Of a stretch of 64,000 bases of DNA, positions 42,469 through 51,070 are shown piece by piece. The DNA is from a virus. Taxonomy: Duplodnaviria > Caudoviricetes. Where the stretch lies: the IMG/VR virus record IMGVR_UViG_3300033073_001045, positions 1 to 64,000 of that record, one strand, 5' to 3'. Position numbers and translations under genes: made by a program. Numbering within the stretch: the first letter of the stretch is position 1; each line of letters opens with the position of its first letter. The notes under the pieces are model-generated. The model saw only the letters and a list, made by a program, of their open reading frames with translations. It had not been told where the DNA came from and searched no databases.

Positions 42469-42926
42469 TAGATTTCTTCCAGAGATATATCAACGTTCCA
42501 AAATTCTTGTGGGTCTAGTCCACTTTCCATCTTTACATTTCTTCTAATAACATTAAATGAGGCAGACTGAAAGAAGGCTGTAAATATCTCATCTCTAGCA
42601 GAGACTCCGTTGTAAGATACTTTTACCTTAAAAGAACCCTTTCCTTTATTTAAATAAAAGGTTTTAAGATCTTGAGCTCCCATTCCACCATCTATTGTCA
42701 TAGAAGAAAATGATGGAATCATGCTCCATGAGGTGCTAATAGTTTTTTTATCAGCAATATGAATTTTTCTTAATGAGCCATTTGCCATTCTTGCTGTTTG
42801 CTCATGCCTATATATATCTGTAGAAATAGCTGACCTATTATGCTCAGACAACTTTGTCCATGTTGGTGTACTAGTTGTTGAGGTATCAATAAACAATGCT
42901 GATCCTACTGGTAGTGTTAAGCTCAT
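42468..42926 (-). CDS. Distal tail protein-like
   Basis: RMANGSLR; C-terminal ISLEEI; immediately follows the tape measure. Confidence 0.65.
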   Translation of the reverse strand: MSLTLPVGSALFIDTSTTSTPTWTKLSEHNRSAISTDIYRHEQTARMANGSLRKIHIADKKTISTSWSMIPSFSSMTIDGGMGAQDLKTFYLNKGKGSFKVKVSYNGVSARDEIFTAFFQSASFNVIRRNVKMESGLDPQEFWNVDISLEEI

Positions 42927-45900
42927 GTATTAATCCTCACGTTTTTAGAAGTTCCTACCATTTTAGCATTAGTTTTTATGCTATCCTGTAGGAACTCATA
43001 GGCTGCAACCTTTGCCTTCATTACTAATTGATCTTCATTCATTCCAGGCGCAGCATGAATATGTTGTGTATATTGAATTGTTGTTCCAGAGTGTTGCTGG
43101 GCGCTTCCCATTTGAAGTGCGGCTTTATTTACATCATATCTTGGAGAGCTAAATGGTATCTTTGCTAGGTTAGGAATAATCATTCCTCCAAACGCCATTT
43201 CTGGGCCACGGTCTCCAACAATTGTAGGGATGTTTGGATCTAGCTTCATTGTTCCGTATCCAGCTTTTTCTATATTCCAAGTATTATACTGTCCCTCTCC
43301 AGTTACTCTCCACTTTTTACCATTTTTATCTAGGAACTCAAGTCCCTTTCTAATTTGACCAGTCTGAATTCCAGCAGCATTTAGGTTGCCAGTACCTACT
43401 GTTGGATTTTTTGTGCTTGGGCTTATAGCAAAAGATATAGACTTCAAAGCTTGACCGTTCTTATCTACATTAGGACCAAGGTCAACTTTTTTACCATTGA
43501 TAATTATGTCTCCGCTGCCCATTGTAATTCCCTTTGAAGAAAGTGCGCTAGTAACTGCGTCAATCGGCTTACCCATCAATTTGAGAGCCTCAGATGCAAC
43601 ATCTACACCCTTTAAATCTCCCTTAATTACACCAGCAGCCTTGCCAGTTGTAAGGAGACTTGATGCATCCCCCTTGCCAGCCTTTGAATCCTTAATATAC
43701 TGATCTACAGTTTTGCCAGCAGCTATTGCATTCAAAACAAGTGTGGTCATTGCTTTATTAAAATCTTCTATCTTCTGTTTTTGTGTAGCAATCTTTTCAC
43801 CAAGTTTACCTAGATTTTCTGAAGCTAACGCAGCATTATCTGCAAGTTTTTCATTTGCTGAGTTTATTGCATCCATCTTTGCTTGAAGAGGTTTATTAGC
43901 GGCATCTCTAGCATTTTCGATAGCAGCTCTTTGAGAGTTGTACTGCATTGTACTCTGTATGCCCTTCATATCAAGGGACAACTGCTGTGCTTCTGCGGTA
44001 TTGCCTGTGGCTACTGCTGCTTCATATGCAGCCTTTTTCTTTTCAAGTTCTCTAGCTAAATCTGATTCTTGTTTTGCAGCATCAAGAGCTTTTAATCTAG
44101 CATCAGCAAGTTTATTATTTGCATCTATTTGCTTTTGTAGAGCTCTTAGCTGATCTCTTGTGCTAATTTGCTGAGCAACAGACTGACCCCTTGCTGCCTT
44201 TTGTAAAGCCTTATATTGATTTTCTAATTTACCAAGATAAGCGTATTGTTCTTTTAAAATACCAGTTTCATTTTGTTTTGCAATAGTAGCACTTGCAACA
44301 TCAGCTACTCTAGATAATGCAGCCACTGCTTCTGATCCAAGATTTGCAAGGTTGCCAGTAAATCCTTTAGCAGCTAGATTCATTTTTTGCCATAGGCTTA
44401 CTAGTGTATCGGCTGGATTAATAACCTTTTTAAGTGCTGGATTTTGTTTGATCATTTCTTCTCTGGTGGCTTGAGTTAATTTAACCTTTGATGCCTCAAG
44501 ATTATTTAATCTTTGTAACATTTTTTCTTGTGCTTCGTACTCTGTAAGAATCTTAGTATTACCAGTCTTGTCAGCCTTTGCTGCTTTTTTACTACGATCA
44601 ATTAAATCTTGGATGCCAGTATCAATTGCTGTCAATCCTGTATTTACTTGGTTTGCGCCTTCTCTTCCACCTTCTGACGCAGCAGTCTTATATCTAGATA
44701 CAGCTCTAGCAGCAGCATCTTGCTTTGTTTCAATTCTATTAAATCCAGCATTTTGAATTGTATAGCTAGATGCAGTTAAAGCTTTATTAGAAACTTTAAA
44801 CATTGCCCAGATTTTCTTTGTTGCTTCTTCTGCTGAAAGACCAGCAGCCATTAGTTGAACCTTTAAATCTTCTGCAAGTTTTTTAGTATTCTTTTCTCCC
44901 TTTGTTTGATTAATTAATTTAATTTGATCACTGTATGTTTCTTTAACTTCTTTTCTAAGCTTCTTATATTCTTCAATTGTCATTTTAATTGGGGTGCCAG
45001 CATTTTGCATGCTTTCGTATAGCAGTTGATTTTTTTCTCTTAAAGCTTGAATATTTGCAGCAGTCTCTGCTAGTTTACTGCTATAGTCTGTATACTTAAG
45101 CCCAGCTTTCTTTGCTGCCTCTGATGTAAGTCCATACTGTAGCATTCCAATTCTTAAATGCTCATTATGATCTTTCCATCTTTTATTTGCAATAATCAGT
45201 GCTGTGGCACCTATTCCAACTGCAAGATTTAAACGTGTAAGCGCCTTAAGTCCAAATCCAGCAAGTCTAGCAAATTTGCTTGTACTTCCAGATAGAGATT
45301 CAAGTTTACTTCCATACGATGTTAAGTTTCTTAAATCTTTACCATTAACAGAAACCCCTTCAACTGCTTTTGTTGCTCCTATTGGTGCAGTCCATTTACC
45401 CTTAGAGGTAATAGGTGCCTTAGATCCGCCACCGCCCATTGAACCCATTCCAAGCATAGAGCCAAGCATTGCTCCAATCATCTCACCGCCAGGGATACCG
45501 CTCATCTTTCCAAGTGTTTGACCGCCAAACATTCCAAGCATTTGCATCATCATTAGCTTAATCATTCCTCCAGCATTATATCCATTTGGAATAATGCCAC
45601 CAGAATTTCTTGGCACAAATATTTCTGGTCCATTTTCGCCAACAATATATGGTTTATTTCCAGATACTGGTCCGCCCATCTCTCTACCCTCAAGCTTAAA
45701 AATTAATTGTTTTAATGAATCTGTTAATGGGGTTTCTTTCTTTGACTCCCAATTGACATACTTCTTTTTAAGTATGTCTCTATCTATGTCAGATAGCCTT
45801 CTACGAGCCTCTGGAGCCGATAAGAGAGACGATGCGGCAGACCTTATAACAGAGTCTAGAACGCTTGGTTCTAAGGCCTTTATTAGGCTTCCAGCGGCGT

Positions 45901-48900
45901 TCTTAGTATATCCATATGGCATCTCTTTAGCTAATTCTGCTGCAAATTTATCATACAAGAAATTTTGAGCCCTCTTTGTTAAACCACTCTTGCCAAATAA
46001 TTTTTCGCCCATTCCAATTGTTAATGAGTTTACGCCCCATGGAGCTGACTGATACATGCCTGGCTTTGGCTCTCCAGTTGGTCCAAATCCAGCACCAATT
46101 CTAAACATTGCTCTACCTTTTGTTACATTTCCAATTAAACCACCAATTGCAAATCCATTTGCTGCTGTTTTAAATGCAGCATCTGATAAGCTAACAGAAT
46201 GACCTGATTGTCTACGCTTAAGTTCATCTGCAGCTAACAATTTTGCAATTGCTGCTGGAGTCATAGGCTTGGCTTCTGAAACCTTTACAGATGAATGAAT
46301 ACCGTGAAGTTCTCTCCAATTTACAGATCTTGCATCAGATAATCTTTTTATCATTGCGTTATAAATTACTTTTTCTTCTGCATTTAAATCAAAAGAAGAA
46401 ATTGTTTGTTTTAATTTTGGAAGTGCTTTGTCTATTTCTTTTATCATTCTGTCATGATATTGATCTGCAGTCATACTCTTTGGTACATCGACTGTTGCCT
46501 CGGCAAAGAATTTTTTAGCACCACCCTTTACACCAAGCAAATTAATAACAGCCTGATCTTTCATTGAAGGCATAGTTGCAGAGTAATCTCTTAATCCAGA
46601 AGCAGCGCTAAATACACCAGCTGGTCCAACATCGGCCAAAATATCTCCAGAAAGATTTCCTTTGGCTAAATCTTTATCTCCACGCAATGCAGAGGCAACT
46701 AACTGTTTAAAATATTGATCTGTTGTAAATTTTCCATCTTGCTTTGCAAAGGCTTCATCATATTTAGATTCAAGAGCAAGTAGTCTTCTTTTACCCATTG
46801 GGTCTGTTGGGTCATTTATTACAACAACTTTTTGTTTTGGAGATTTTAGTCCGTGGACATCACGAGCAATTTGTGTTGCTCTTAGTTCTGCTAGAGCAGC
46901 CTTTTCATCAAGAACTGGCTTTACAAATACTTTATCTCCACCCTTTGAATATATACCACCAATTCCTGGAACTGGGAAGCTTCTCCCAGATGTAGGCTCA
47001 AGCAAATCATCATATTGAGTTACTGGCTTATGTGCAAATCTTGATTCTGCAACAGCAGCACTTGCTTTCTCCATTGCAATTTTCATAGCTCTTTGCTGTT
47101 CAACTTGTTTAATTGCTCTAGGCATTCCTAAAAATAGTCTGCCTACTCCACCACCGCCAAATAATTTTTGTGCAAATATTTGTCCACCACTATTTGCTGC
47201 ACGTTCAAGGTGTGCAAATCCAAGAGCTCTAGATGCTGCTCCCCTTCTCATAAGTTTAAATAAACTTGGGAGTGAAATTATTCCTTTACTTCTATCTAAA
47301 ATTGCTTGAGGTACAGTTGTTCCAAATCTTTTTAGCCAAGCATTATCTTGTAGCTTAATAGCTTTATCTGTCATTAGTACTTCGTCTGGGAAGTAAGAGA
47401 AAGATCTTTGTCCCTTAATCATTAATGCTCTTCTTACATCATTAGCGGCTAGATTTAAATCGGCTTCTCCCCAAAATGCTTGTCCAAAGTTACCAGCAGC
47501 CTTATAACCCCATTTTGCATCTGGGCTTGTATGTGTACTGTGTAAGTTTGTAGCTGATACCTTGCCGTATTTATCAATTACCCAATTACCATTCTTTGAT
47601 TCAAATCCTAAATCTTTAAATAGCCTATCTACAAAATCTTTACCGCCAAATTTATCTGGATTATTTCTTATATGATCAAGCATTTCTGCAGTAGGTCTAG
47701 CATCACTTGCACCTATTCTTGCAGCCGCATTGGTATTAAGTTGTCTACGCTTTAATGGCTCTAGTCCAGCATTTGCATCTTTTACAATTTTAACTGCTTT
47801 TACAAATTGCTTTTCTCTTATCTTTCTCCAAGCATTTTTATCTATAGTACCATTTTCAGTCATTGCGCCTTTAGGTTTAGGCAGCATAGCCTCTTCATAA
47901 TTTTGTGTAGCTATTCTAACAGCATCATCAATTGCAATTCCTTTATTATTTAATACTGTTGCATCATGCATTATACTTCTATGCTGTAGTTCTTTTTGCC
48001 ATCCACCATTTTGCATTGCATTTTGATATCTTTCTTGTAAACGAAGAATTTTTTTCCATGTTGTCCAATCTGGATTTCCACCAGACTCCAAACCAAATCC
48101 AGTTTTTCCAGGACCTCCATTTAGCGCATACATCAATGGCATATTTTTTTGTGCAATGTCTGCAGGAACAACTGCTTCTCCTGGAGTCAATACGACAGGT
48201 ACGTTTCCTCCAGAATTTCTATATACTGGTCTTCCACCAAGTAAATCTTGAATTATTGGCATGTTTGCCTGTGTACCAGCTTTATTTATTACAAACGATC
48301 CAGCCTCTGCTGTTGTATGATACGTGTCAGTATTTCCAGTTCCTGGAACAATTCCACCCTTTGCAAGCTTAGGCTTTGTTGTTTGAATATTATATCCAGC
48401 TCCAGAAGTTCTAACGCCACCAAGCGCTCTTGCAATTCTATCTGCTATTTCTTTTGTTGTTCCCTTATGAAACATTTCTTTCATGTTTGACTTGCCAGTA
48501 ACTGGATCAACAACTGGCTGTGATGTTAATGGTACTGTAGTTAAATTTGCAACTCTTCCCATAGATGCGGCAGTCATGCTTGCTGTCTCTGCAAGCATCG
48601 CTTCTACTGTTGCGTTGAGCTGAATTATTTTTGCTCTTGCCTGATCTACTGTTATTTTATTTGCTTGAACTTCAGCAACTATAGCCTGAACTTCTCTTGC
48701 AGCCAAATCTGTTATTTCAGAGAACTGAGGAAGTAGGGCCTGATATGCATCTGTTAAACTAGAAGTCACTGTTCCAGTTGCCATTACTTCTGTCTTAAGG
48801 GCTTTTATTTCTGCTTCTGACTGCATGGCAATTGCAGCTGTCATCGCATGCCACTTAGCAGCCTCCTGGGCAACAATTCCAGTAGATGTGCCATTAATCG

Positions 48901-51070
48901 ATGTGACTCCAGGAATTTTTGGCATATCGTCGCTCATATATGCCTGTGGATTTTTACCAATTCTAATATTTACTGGCTTTGAACCTGGAACTGTTCCAAA
49001 AATTGTTCCCATCTGTGCAATTCCAGAAGGAATTAAATGCGACATGTCTCTTGAGTGTGGTTTACCTACAAGTGGATTATCTTTATCTACAACTCTTCCA
49101 CCAGCGCTACCTGCTGCAAGCACTGTTCCAGCAACCGTTGATATCGCAGGTTGAACTGCAACCTTTGCTGAATTTGCTTTTGTTTCTAAATCTGCTAAAG
49201 ATTGTGTAAGAGTATTTACAGCATTTGATAATACTATTGTTGCTTCTGAGTCAGAATAAAATGTTGTTGCAAGTCCTTTAGCGGCAGCATCTGCAGCAAT
49301 AATCTCTGGAGTTAATAACTTAAATCCTTGTCCGCCCTTAGCTATTTGGCGAAGATGAAATATTCCTTTGATTACATATCCAATAAAGTTGCCCATAACA
49401 CCAGTAAGCATGATGAGTGGACCTGCAATTGCTGTGAGTCCGCCAAGTGCATTTAAAAATGTTTTAACTGGACCAGGAAGATTTTCAAAAAACTTAATAA
49501 TTCCATCAACAACCTTTAATACTTTTGTGCTTACTTTTAAGAACTGTTCGCCAGCTTGAGCAAGATCAGCTTGAACTGTAGCCCAGGCTCTCTTAAATTG
49601 ACCAGATGCTGACTCTGTCATCATCTTTAATTCTCGTTCTGATATGCTAGCTAAATCAGATACACTAGCTTTCATTAAGTCCATAACCTGCAATGTTTGA
49701 GATCCAGATTTACCAAGGTTTTCAAAAAGTGCAGACATTCTTGCATATTGAAACTTTCCAAATAGCTGTTCAATTGCTCTTGACTTCTGCAATGGGTTTA
49801 GTTGATCCAACGCAGATTGTAAATCAAGAATTGTTTGTGTTAAATTTCCAGCATTTGACGAAACAATTTGTTCAAGGTTAATTCCAAATCCAGTAAACAT
49901 TTCTTTAGCAACTTTTGTTGGATTGATGAGTGAAGCCATTGCTGACTTAATAGCATTTGCACCTTCTGAGGCATTTACTCCACCTTCTTTCATTGCTGTA
50001 AGATAAAGGGCTAAGTCTTTTACATCCCCACCAAGAGACTTAACAACTGGACCAGCTTTTGGAATTGCTTCAACTAAATCTGCAAGGCTTGTTGATGTTT
50101 GGTTTTCAACTGCGTTAAGGAAGTCAATAGACTCTGTTAGCTGATCTGTATTTTGTTTAAATGCATTTTGAATAGCAAGTGTTGCCTTCATTGCATCTTG
50201 TCGCTCTACTTCTCCAAGCACTGCAAGTCTAGATGTTTGTCTTGTTGCTTCTAGCAGCGCATTGCCTTGCTGACCAGTTGCTGCGAGGTCAGCAGCAAGA
50301 GCGATAGTATCTTTATAAGCAACACCATATGAACTTGCTATCTCTTTTGCTGTAGCAGAAACATCTTTTCTTACTTTTGCAAGATCTTGTGAGGATACTG
50401 CAGCGAGACCTCCATAAACTTTTGTTAATCTTACAAGTTCTTGATCTGCTTCTCTAAATGCTTTTTGTGCTGCAGCTCCAAATGCAACAAGAGGAACTGT
50501 TAGACCAACTGTTAATTGTCGACCAGCCCACTGTGTATTTTTACCCCAGTTAATTAATTGATTTGATCCATCAAGCATTACCTTGTTCATAATCGCAGCT
50601 TCTTGTCTTGCGATTGCCATCTTGTTTTTTACTTCGTCAAGGCCCTTTGCAACCATAATATTGTATTGCATTATTCCCTGTGCATTTTTACCAACAGGTT
50701 GTACTATGGCTTGCTGTAGCATGACCTGCTGTTTAGCAAGATCTCTAATTAATGTGCTTGTTTTTTTAGTGTGGCCGTTCCAAGCGTTATAATATTCGTT
50801 TAGCTTAAGACGGCCACGATCTAAATTTTTACCAAACTTTTCTACATCTGATGATAGAGAAACAAAGTGTGAAGAAAATTGCCCAGTAGATCTCATTGTT
50901 TCCGCAAATGATTTATTCATTACGGCAATTTGATTTGCTAGCTTAGAGTTTGTTCCAGCTGTTGTTTCTTGCAGTTTTATGAGTTGGGCAGTAGTTGCAG
51001 CTAGCTGTGTTCGTAAACTGCTAAAATCTGCATTGGCGGTAATGTTGGTCGTGATCAAATTATCTGCCAT
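42923..51070 (-). CDS. Tape measure protein with internal cargo domains
   Basis: 2715 aa; TP901-type TMP core (LTVGLTVPL ... ); follows the tail chaperones; repeated xxGG motifs flank inserted modules. Confidence 0.92.
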   Translation of the reverse strand: MADNLITTNITANADFSSLRTQLAATTAQLIKLQETTAGTNSKLANQIAVMNKSFAETMRSTGQFSSHFVSLSSDVEKFGKNLDRGRLKLNEYYNAWNGHTKKTSTLIRDLAKQQVMLQQAIVQPVGKNAQGIMQYNIMVAKGLDEVKNKMAIARQEAAIMNKVMLDGSNQLINWGKNTQWAGRQLTVGLTVPLVAFGAAAQKAFREADQELVRLTKVYGGLAAVSSQDLAKVRKDVSATAKEIASSYGVAYKDTIALAADLAATGQQGNALLEATRQTSRLAVLGEVERQDAMKATLAIQNAFKQNTDQLTESIDFLNAVENQTSTSLADLVEAIPKAGPVVKSLGGDVKDLALYLTAMKEGGVNASEGANAIKSAMASLINPTKVAKEMFTGFGINLEQIVSSNAGNLTQTILDLQSALDQLNPLQKSRAIEQLFGKFQYARMSALFENLGKSGSQTLQVMDLMKASVSDLASISERELKMMTESASGQFKRAWATVQADLAQAGEQFLKVSTKVLKVVDGIIKFFENLPGPVKTFLNALGGLTAIAGPLIMLTGVMGNFIGYVIKGIFHLRQIAKGGQGFKLLTPEIIAADAAAKGLATTFYSDSEATIVLSNAVNTLTQSLADLETKANSAKVAVQPAISTVAGTVLAAGSAGGRVVDKDNPLVGKPHSRDMSHLIPSGIAQMGTIFGTVPGSKPVNIRIGKNPQAYMSDDMPKIPGVTSINGTSTGIVAQEAAKWHAMTAAIAMQSEAEIKALKTEVMATGTVTSSLTDAYQALLPQFSEITDLAAREVQAIVAEVQANKITVDQARAKIIQLNATVEAMLAETASMTAASMGRVANLTTVPLTSQPVVDPVTGKSNMKEMFHKGTTKEIADRIARALGGVRTSGAGYNIQTTKPKLAKGGIVPGTGNTDTYHTTAEAGSFVINKAGTQANMPIIQDLLGGRPVYRNSGGNVPVVLTPGEAVVPADIAQKNMPLMYALNGGPGKTGFGLESGGNPDWTTWKKILRLQERYQNAMQNGGWQKELQHRSIMHDATVLNNKGIAIDDAVRIATQNYEEAMLPKPKGAMTENGTIDKNAWRKIREKQFVKAVKIVKDANAGLEPLKRRQLNTNAAARIGASDARPTAEMLDHIRNNPDKFGGKDFVDRLFKDLGFESKNGNWVIDKYGKVSATNLHSTHTSPDAKWGYKAAGNFGQAFWGEADLNLAANDVRRALMIKGQRSFSYFPDEVLMTDKAIKLQDNAWLKRFGTTVPQAILDRSKGIISLPSLFKLMRRGAASRALGFAHLERAANSGGQIFAQKLFGGGGVGRLFLGMPRAIKQVEQQRAMKIAMEKASAAVAESRFAHKPVTQYDDLLEPTSGRSFPVPGIGGIYSKGGDKVFVKPVLDEKAALAELRATQIARDVHGLKSPKQKVVVINDPTDPMGKRRLLALESKYDEAFAKQDGKFTTDQYFKQLVASALRGDKDLAKGNLSGDILADVGPAGVFSAASGLRDYSATMPSMKDQAVINLLGVKGGAKKFFAEATVDVPKSMTADQYHDRMIKEIDKALPKLKQTISSFDLNAEEKVIYNAMIKRLSDARSVNWRELHGIHSSVKVSEAKPMTPAAIAKLLAADELKRRQSGHSVSLSDAAFKTAANGFAIGGLIGNVTKGRAMFRIGAGFGPTGEPKPGMYQSAPWGVNSLTIGMGEKLFGKSGLTKRAQNFLYDKFAAELAKEMPYGYTKNAAGSLIKALEPSVLDSVIRSAASSLLSAPEARRRLSDIDRDILKKKYVNWESKKETPLTDSLKQLIFKLEGREMGGPVSGNKPYIVGENGPEIFVPRNSGGIIPNGYNAGGMIKLMMMQMLGMFGGQTLGKMSGIPGGEMIGAMLGSMLGMGSMGGGGSKAPITSKGKWTAPIGATKAVEGVSVNGKDLRNLTSYGSKLESLSGSTSKFARLAGFGLKALTRLNLAVGIGATALIIANKRWKDHNEHLRIGMLQYGLTSEAAKKAGLKYTDYSSKLAETAANIQALREKNQLLYESMQNAGTPIKMTIEEYKKLRKEVKETYSDQIKLINQTKGEKNTKKLAEDLKVQLMAAGLSAEEATKKIWAMFKVSNKALTASSYTIQNAGFNRIETKQDAAARAVSRYKTAASEGGREGANQVNTGLTAIDTGIQDLIDRSKKAAKADKTGNTKILTEYEAQEKMLQRLNNLEASKVKLTQATREEMIKQNPALKKVINPADTLVSLWQKMNLAAKGFTGNLANLGSEAVAALSRVADVASATIAKQNETGILKEQYAYLGKLENQYKALQKAARGQSVAQQISTRDQLRALQKQIDANNKLADARLKALDAAKQESDLARELEKKKAAYEAAVATGNTAEAQQLSLDMKGIQSTMQYNSQRAAIENARDAANKPLQAKMDAINSANEKLADNAALASENLGKLGEKIATQKQKIEDFNKAMTTLVLNAIAAGKTVDQYIKDSKAGKGDASSLLTTGKAAGVIKGDLKGVDVASEALKLMGKPIDAVTSALSSKGITMGSGDIIINGKKVDLGPNVDKNGQALKSISFAISPSTKNPTVGTGNLNAAGIQTGQIRKGLEFLDKNGKKWRVTGEGQYNTWNIEKAGYGTMKLDPNIPTIVGDRGPEMAFGGMIIPNLAKIPFSSPRYDVNKAALQMGSAQQHSGTTIQYTQHIHAAPGMNEDQLVMKAKVAAYEFLQDSIKTNAKMVGTSKNVRINT

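Follow-up and report, generated by a model that had tools for sequence, protein, structure and literature searches.

A predicted kinase-fold domain within the tape measure protein of an uncultured tailed virus

A kinase-like domain in the tape measure protein

IMG/VR virus record IMGVR_UViG_3300033073_001045 is a 104-kb virus genome whose completeness is estimated at 94%. The stretch analysed here, called the window, comprises positions 1 to 64,000 of that record and has a G+C content of 36.6%. It includes the gene for a tape measure protein (TMP) of 2715 amino acids (aa), and within this protein, at about aa 1345-1600, there is a domain that very probably adopts the protein kinase-like (PKL) fold and is likely to be a catalytically active kinase. 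The protein is a TMP of the TP901 type, as indicated by the presence of PF10145, its position in the tail gene cluster, and its great length combined with hydrophobic segments. The TMP families of PHROGs match aa 1-850. The coordinates of the gene and of features within it are collected in Table 1.

Table 1. The TMP gene and the features encoded within it (positions in the window)
Feature	Position	Strand	Basis and remarks
TMP gene (P0001)	42923..51070	-	Uninterrupted single open reading frame, 2715 aa; N-terminal third matches PF10145 and TMP PHROGs; tail genes flank
TP901-type TMP module PF10145, aa 239-438	49757..50356	-	Pfam E 6e-29
Upstream hydrophobic membrane-type segment, aa 537-571	49358..49462	-	Kyte-Doolittle 19-aa windows >1.5
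Variable cassette, aa 1001-1300	47171..48070	-	Immediately upstream of the kinase domain; mean identity only 17-29% among close TMPs
Predicted kinase-fold domain, aa ~1345-1600	46271..47038	-	AlphaFold2 model and structural neighbours; modelled as aa 1335-1615, window 46226-47068
Gly-rich nucleotide-loop region, aa 1362-1380	46931..46987	-	Invariant G1362, S1364 and G1372; Y1374 98%
K1384, predicted ATP-anchoring beta3 Lys (VFVKP)	46919..46921	-	Invariant, 126/126; model residue 50, within strand 45-52
E1395, predicted alphaC Glu	46886..46888	-	Invariant, 126/126; model residue 61, within helix 55-72
Catalytic loop D1465-K-D1467-L-A-K-G-N1472	46655..46678	-	Directly after model helix 116-129; model residues 133-138 are D1467 to N1472
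D1480-V-G1482, metal-binding DxG (DFG equivalent)	46625..46633	-	D 126/126; G 122/126, else Ser; D1480 is model residue 146
Gly/Met-rich segment, aa 1836-1885	45416..45565	-	Read from translation; block aa 1801-1900 holds 25 Gly
Downstream hydrophobic segment, aa 1943-1961	45188..45244	-	Hydropathy 1.67

An initial annotation of this DNA, made without database searches, had placed a kinase-like domain of the HipA/PI3-PI4-kinase class inside the TMP. All four of the motif strings that it quoted are present, at aa 1371-1385, 1391-1411, 1457-1473 and 1477-1482 (window 46625-46960). In the structural model described below, the Gly-rich region takes in strand 38-42 with its two adjoining loops, up to the start of strand 45-52. 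Within the catalytic loop, D1467 is found in 125 of 126 representatives of the domain family and N1472 in all 126, while L1468 is conserved in 99% and D1465 in 120 of 126 (95%), with Asn in the remainder. The spacing of five between the Asp and the Asn is the same as that in HRDxxxxN and DxHxxN. The annotation was also correct in stating that the usual His of DxHxxN is Ala here, and this D+2 position, which is His in HipA and PI3K, is variable across the family.

The string of motifs by itself is weak evidence for a kinase and is not diagnostic. A loose regular expression (G.G..K..E..DxxxxN..DxG) matches 52 of 500 shuffles of the TMP (~10%). The same expression also matches the TMP at aa 991 (window 48098 region) by chance; most of that stretch, from aa 1001 on, is the least conserved in the TMP and gives a mean predicted local distance difference test score (pLDDT) of 44. 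The kinase call stands above chance because of conservation and fold, and not because of motif order.

Conservation was evaluated by excising the domain from the 126 representatives and aligning the excised regions, which yielded 256 domain columns. There are only nine invariant columns, and four of these are K1384, E1395, N1472 and D1480. The complete Lys-Glu-Asp-Asn-Asp set is present in 125 of the 126 representatives, including members with 28% identity to the query, and the catalytic residues proposed in the initial annotation thus hold up among distant homologues. Among 45 close full-length TMPs, identity within the kinase domain is 72-89%, which is on par with that of the essential N-terminal part. 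The domain is basic, with a median isoelectric point (pI) of 9.2 for the 126 representatives.

AlphaFold2, supplied with a 42-row alignment of aa 1335-1615, produced a model with a pLDDT of 92.7 and a predicted template modelling score (pTM) of 0.89. The N-lobe consists of a small beta-sheet that includes strand 45-52, the long helix 55-72, two further strands and a short linker. Helix 116-129 and the catalytic loop come next, and are followed by the helices of the C-lobe over residues 169-259. Thus, the model has the beta-sheet and helix C of a PKL N-lobe together with a helical C-lobe, and the Lys, Glu, Asp, Asn and Asp residues occur in that order in the structural elements where they are expected. 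A 'universal core' of the kinase-like fold has been described previously (Scheeff and Bourne 2005, PMC1261164).

The model was compared with 48,161 PDB representatives by a VIA search, which is independent of Foldseek, and the best 50 neighbours were listed. All 50 are kinases, and the alignments span both lobes (model residues 12-254). The highest score is that of CotH (Z 12.1, 217 aligned residues), and other high-scoring neighbours are MavQ (Z 10.0, 223 residues), PI4KII alpha (Z 10.0, 216 residues), CtkA (Z 9.7, 196 residues), Fam20/Golgi casein kinase (Z 9.2, 205 residues) and HipA (Z 9.1, 185 residues). Lower-ranked neighbours include PI3K/PIKK, actin-fragmin kinase, Rio and Bud32. Foldseek against the PDB is marginal by itself (best E 3e-3, for CtkA), although its list is dominated by kinases. 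Realignment of the Foldseek candidates gave Z 12.2 for CotH (rmsd 3.8 A, 213 aa), 10.9 for CtkA, 10.1 for MavQ and 10.0 for PI4KII, with HipA, HipT and LepB all at Z 9.2.

In BFVD, the top of the list (E ~1e-4) consists of large phage proteins from uncultured Caudovirales, Mycobacterium phage Onyinye and haloarchaeal tailed viruses, with annotations as PI3/4-kinase-domain, ADP-ribosyltransferase or portal-fusion proteins. Gordonia phage proteins rank lower, at E ~1e-2. A search of ESM Atlas with protein-language-model features returned HipA_2, LepB_N and PI3_PI4 clusters, of which the HipA_2 clusters dominate.

These results and the conserved catalytic residues uphold the claim that a kinase-like domain is embedded in the TMP, and the 50 best listed neighbours, which are kinases of the CotH, CtkA, PI4KII, MavQ, HipA and LepB types, place its fold among the atypical kinases as had been proposed. 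The narrower assignment to the HipA/PI3-PI4-kinase class fares less evenly. It is favoured by the fold and by the ESM Atlas clusters, but it is not supported by sequence-family membership, and the best structural match is CotH.

Distribution and relationship to known families

A word-seeded search among TMP-length proteins, in which aa 1340-1640 served as the query, identified at least 897 matching protein clusters at the 90% identity level, the best 120 of which show 73-99% identity across the domain. When 1.84 billion representatives were searched exhaustively with HMMER, the query aa 1310-1640 matched 169 clusters at the 50% identity level, 142 of them with E <1e-30. Nearly all of the proteins matched by HMMER are 1,500-4,500 aa in length. 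The short matches that were examined (P0127, P0240 and others) look like fragments because their starts or ends fall inside the domain. There are also 309 matching stretches on IMG/VR contigs. Throughout these 169 clusters and 309 stretches, the domain is seen only in TMP-type proteins or in fragments thereof. By either count of clusters the family is abundant in metagenomes, yet it is missed by current domain databases.

The architecture of the surrounding protein is also well conserved. The PF10145-containing N-terminal stretch (aa 151-520) has a homologous counterpart in 112 of 150 representatives with the kinase domain, and the remainder are mostly fragments. A hydrophobic segment at about aa 540-570 precedes the kinase domain in every one of the 102 near-full-length representatives, and another follows it in 90 of them. 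The order of N-module, hydrophobic segment, kinase and hydrophobic segment is therefore found in 90 of 102 near-full-length relatives, wherein the kinase domain usually starts near aa 720.

Other cargo is found in the TMPs of relatives, namely Peptidase_M23, OmpA-like PF00691 and one weak HAD_PNKP match. These modules were seen in P0253 (aa 2198-2291) and in TMPs of 3,070-4,190 aa. Their presence in the same TMP family indicates that cell-wall-directed and nucleotide-dependent modules can share one polypeptide. In addition, a second, unrelated kinase-like module with the motifs DTHPGN ... DLG is present in P0256 (aa 150-367), P0138 (aa 3650-3820) and P0149 (aa 746-913), and the copy in P0256 has a weak match to PF00454 (E 0.008) that falls below the cut-off. 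The presence of this second module in three relatives makes kinases seem to be a recurrent type of TMP cargo.

Searches for a sequence family to which the domain belongs were negative. With Pfam at E values up to 10, no kinase family was matched and the only match was a spurious one to adenosine deaminase (E 0.097). There is no match to the domain in NCBIfam or PHROGs, and searches of PDB sequences with phmmer and with a 16-sequence profile gave chance matches only. This suggests that the domain represents a PKL-fold family absent from current domain libraries.

Individual families were considered in turn. For HipA (PF07804 and PF20613), there is no match to the family models, and the loop reads D-L-A-K-G-N and so lacks the His of DxHxxN. 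For HipA_2 (PF20613) in particular, the whole phage record lacks a match even at E up to 10, and when the 126-sequence profile was compared with E. coli HipA by hhalign, the probability did not exceed 0.2% in either global or local mode. The PI3/PI4-kinase family PF00454 has no match to this TMP, and the GDRHxxN signature is not present. CotH (PF08757) has no Pfam match at E up to 10, despite being the best structural match. The polyvalent-protein kinase family (Iyer et al. 2017) differs in that the model of the TMP domain retains C-lobe helices 169-259, which can be aligned with the C-lobes of known kinases. According to the model, the domain is structurally nearest to the CotH/CtkA/PI4KII/HipA corner of the PKL superfamily, yet lies outside those sequence families.

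Comparison with the nearest of these kinases reveals both likenesses and differences. The CotH protein of Bacillus cereus (PDB 5jd9 and 5jda) aligns with both lobes of the model, and it resembles the TMP domain in being an atypical PKL kinase that acts as part of a large assembly of proteins. However, the two are only 10-11% identical, and CotH is a stand-alone bacterial protein rather than part of a virion protein. HipA, HipT and Helicobacter pylori CtkA (PF07804 HipA_C and PF20613 HipA_2) share the fold and the Lys ... DxxxxN ... DxG order. In contrast to HipA, this phage TMP carries Ala in place of the His of DxHxxN and is not matched by the HipA models, and the N-terminal subdomain and antitoxin partner of HipA were not seen here, though no search was aimed at either. 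PI4KII alpha, VPS34 and the Legionella proteins MavQ and LepB (PF00454 and PF18640) align over 185-219 residues with Z 9-10. Unlike these PI3/PI4-type kinases, the TMP domain is without helical or C2 accessory domains and without GDRHxxN. In type II PI4Ks, too, the lysine lies in an FKP motif and the catalytic loop lacks His.

Possible functions of the embedded kinase

TMPs fill the lumen of the tail tube as elongated chains, of which there are six copies in Ur-lambda, and the C-terminal part is present in three copies in several other phages (PMC12617516). They are ejected before the DNA and form a trans-envelope conduit (PMC12617516). Since entry of the TMP precedes that of the DNA, delivery of the kinase to the host by the virion is probable. 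Effector delivery before phage gene expression, which had been proposed in the initial annotation, is something we infer from general TMP biology. The explanation that we favour, by a little more than even odds, is that the TMP transports an active atypical kinase as its cargo, which would be delivered at infection and phosphorylate a host target before phage genes are expressed. That the newly infected cell is where the domain acts is a proposition on which we are evenly balanced.

Under the favoured explanation, the kinase domain would travel in the tail tube in an extended, non-native form, like the rest of the TMP. The TMP with its kinase would then be expelled before the DNA, and the hydrophobic segments on both sides of the domain might insert into the cytoplasmic membrane. 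Perhaps the kinase then folds on the ATP-containing side, where it could use cytoplasmic ATP to phosphorylate a host target, and this would precede the expression of any phage gene. The substrate may be either a protein or a lipid, as the structural neighbours are split about equally between protein and lipid kinases. The list of target candidates could include proteins (compare CotH, CtkA and HipA) and membrane lipids or envelope precursors (compare PI4KII, MavQ and LepB).

There are several partial precedents for such an arrangement. Other TMPs with embedded enzymes (TM4 gp17 Mt3, T5 pb2 and TMPs with M23 or transglycosylase modules) likewise carry a catalytic module inside the ruler that is used at infection. 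In TM4, the embedded enzymatic motif promotes infection, and removal of the 114-aa motif shortened tails by ~20 nm (PMC1796659), which indicates that an embedded module counts towards ruler length. The kinase domain, at ~260 aa, is more than twice the size of the TM4 motif. A further difference is that the embedded TMP activities described in these reports (PMC1796659, PMC12617516) are peptidoglycan hydrolases acting outside the cytoplasm, whereas a kinase needs ATP, which implies a role on the cytoplasmic side.

The polyvalent-protein kinases are another point of comparison, because they are parts of multidomain proteins that are predicted to be associated with virions or with transfer, and a role in modifying host proteins upon entry has been suggested for them (Iyer et al. 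2017, PMC5512222). The BFVD neighbours of the TMP domain likewise include large phage proteins with ADP-ribosyltransferase and portal annotations. However, that kinase family has lost the whole C-terminal subdomain, whereas the TMP domain retains its helical C-lobe. The polyvalent-protein kinases occur in elements of Verrucomicrobia, Chlamydia and Bacteroidetes, and the report never mentions tape measure proteins (PMC5512222). The proposed early action on host proteins also has a likeness among phage kinases. The protein kinase of phage T7 (gp0.7) is expressed from the incoming genome and is not known to be carried by the virion. It phosphorylates host proteins early in infection (PMC5512222).

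Several observations weigh against delivery of an active kinase to the host. Three to six folded copies of a ~28 kDa domain would be expected to exceed the space in the lumen of a tail tube, as estimated from the typical dimensions of kinase domains and tubes. The domain would therefore have to be stored unfolded and then refold, a process that is not known for a domain of this size. There is also a problem of membrane sidedness, and the TMPs of relatives carry envelope-directed cargo (Peptidase_M23 and OmpA-like modules). Furthermore, Pfam, PDB, NCBIfam and hhalign against HipA reveal no sequence-level link to any characterised kinase, and tblastn against 50,697 cultured-phage records found no match to the domain at 1e-5.

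One alternative is that the membrane-inserted domain acts on a lipid or a lipid-linked envelope precursor, whose phosphorylation would open or stabilise the DNA channel by local remodelling. Phosphatidylinositol would be an example of such a substrate if the host is an actinobacterium. This possibility is consistent with the placement of MavQ, PI4KII, VPS34 and LepB among the top neighbours (Z 9-10), with the LepB_N and PI3_PI4 clusters from ESM Atlas, and with a basic domain that has hydrophobic segments on either side, and the portal and the N-terminal part of the TMP are nearest to those of Streptomyces and Gordonia phages. However, the protein kinases CotH, CtkA and HipA score equally well or higher, and a lipid-kinase sequence signature such as GDRHxxN is lacking. 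In addition, an actinobacterial host is unproven, and the G+C content of 36.6% is unlike that of Streptomyces. We consider a dedicated lipid kinase to be unlikely.

The main competing explanation, which is about as unlikely, is that the kinase serves morphogenesis in the producer cell. There it would phosphorylate the TMP, tail chaperones or other virion proteins and so control tail assembly, much as CotH phosphorylates spore-coat proteins while the coat is being assembled, and it would have no role in the next host. The best structural neighbour is CotH itself (Z 12.2), the TMP is synthesised in an ATP-containing cytoplasm, and both the refolding problem and the membrane sidedness problem are sidestepped. 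Nevertheless, a folded kinase would need to be unfolded or enclosed as the tube polymerises around the TMP, and no Ser/Thr-rich stretch that is evidently conserved and could act as acceptor was identified. A membrane role at entry is also a better match than a role in assembly for the conserved position of the domain between two hydrophobic segments.

A kinase fold with other chemistry or none is a considerably poorer candidate. The domain might then be a nucleotide-binding switch, a pseudokinase scaffold, or a PKL enzyme that carries out AMPylation or another transfer reaction. PKL folds are capable of AMPylation or glutamylation, according to the KINtaro report (PMC10870513), and the His of DxHxxN is missing here. 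Pseudokinases, however, typically lose some catalytic residues, and the intact set in all but one of the 126 representatives makes the pseudokinase option raised in the initial annotation unlikely. Structures of the SelO and SidJ types are not among the 50 neighbours listed. Finally, chance occurrence of the motif in ordinary helical TMP filler, which its frequency among shuffled sequences might have suggested, is refuted by the high-confidence alpha/beta two-lobed model, by listed neighbours that are all kinases, and by catalytic residues that are invariant across the 126 clusters, and it deserves practically no weight.

No report linking a tape measure protein with a kinase was found in the full-text literature searched. 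In the existing picture, TMPs are rulers and channel formers whose embedded enzymes are cell-wall hydrolases (PMC1796659, PMC12617516). A conserved, apparently active kinase in a TMP implies either that the TMP is an effector carrier with access to the ATP-containing side of the membrane or that phosphorylation controls tail assembly, and either would be new. The finding extends what is known of enzymatic cargo in TMPs and of effectors delivered by virions, and adds a new PKL sequence family. In its broadest form, the delivery proposal is that the TMPs of a large clade of uncultured siphophages bring in an ATP-dependent effector, such that three to six copies of the kinase pass along the tail as threaded chains, regain their fold on the cytoplasmic side of the membrane, and transfer phosphate to a host protein or lipid ahead of any phage transcription. 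We put forward this version tentatively, as its chances fall somewhat short of even. If it is true, a TMP would for the first time be credited with an enzymatic activity directed at the cytoplasm, as far as the literature searched extends. It also raises the biophysical question of how a ~28 kDa domain survives storage in the tail tube and refolds on ejection.

Neighbouring genes, host affinities and other segments

Downstream of the TMP gene there are genes for minor tail proteins, and upstream there is a gene for an Ig-domain protein together with members of small PHROG families of unknown function. The portal protein is 56-58% identical to the portals of large Streptomyces siphophages. The N-terminal part of the TMP is closest to the TMPs of Streptomyces and Gordonia phages, followed by those of Enterococcus and other Gram-positive phages. 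These affinities of the portal and the TMP make it plausible, though unproven, that the host is Gram-positive and possibly an actinobacterium.

There is a single GTDB contig with the domain (L009; CAZCDW010000001.1, 85-kb). It encodes a TMP of >3019 aa and belongs to a metagenome-assembled genome labelled 'uncultured Bifidobacterium sp.' The label is doubtful because the G+C content of the locus is 41.7%, and the contig consequently provides no host information. It is probably a phage contig that was binned with the wrong organism. In the search of cultured-phage records, the lone tblastn match at E <=10 was gp39 of Roseobacter phage CRP-4 (E 6), and this candidate was rejected after hhalign gave a probability of 0.7%.

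The variable cassette at aa 1001-1300 is common to only 18 protein clusters and has no Pfam match. The TMPs among which it is so poorly conserved are otherwise 70-90% identical. On the basis of sequence comparison, it resembles an exchangeable cassette, one of several, located beside a fixed kinase. AlphaFold2 on aa 1001-1334 provided no fold call, and this low-confidence model serves only as a partial negative control because its alignment has 16 rows compared with 42 for the kinase domain. The central region of the TMP is bordered by the Gly-rich repeats 'GG..VPG.G' and 'GE.GPE..VP', which are located at aa 1783-1836 (window 45563-45724) and at aa ~900-1000. One of these Gly-rich repeats matches phrog_30701.

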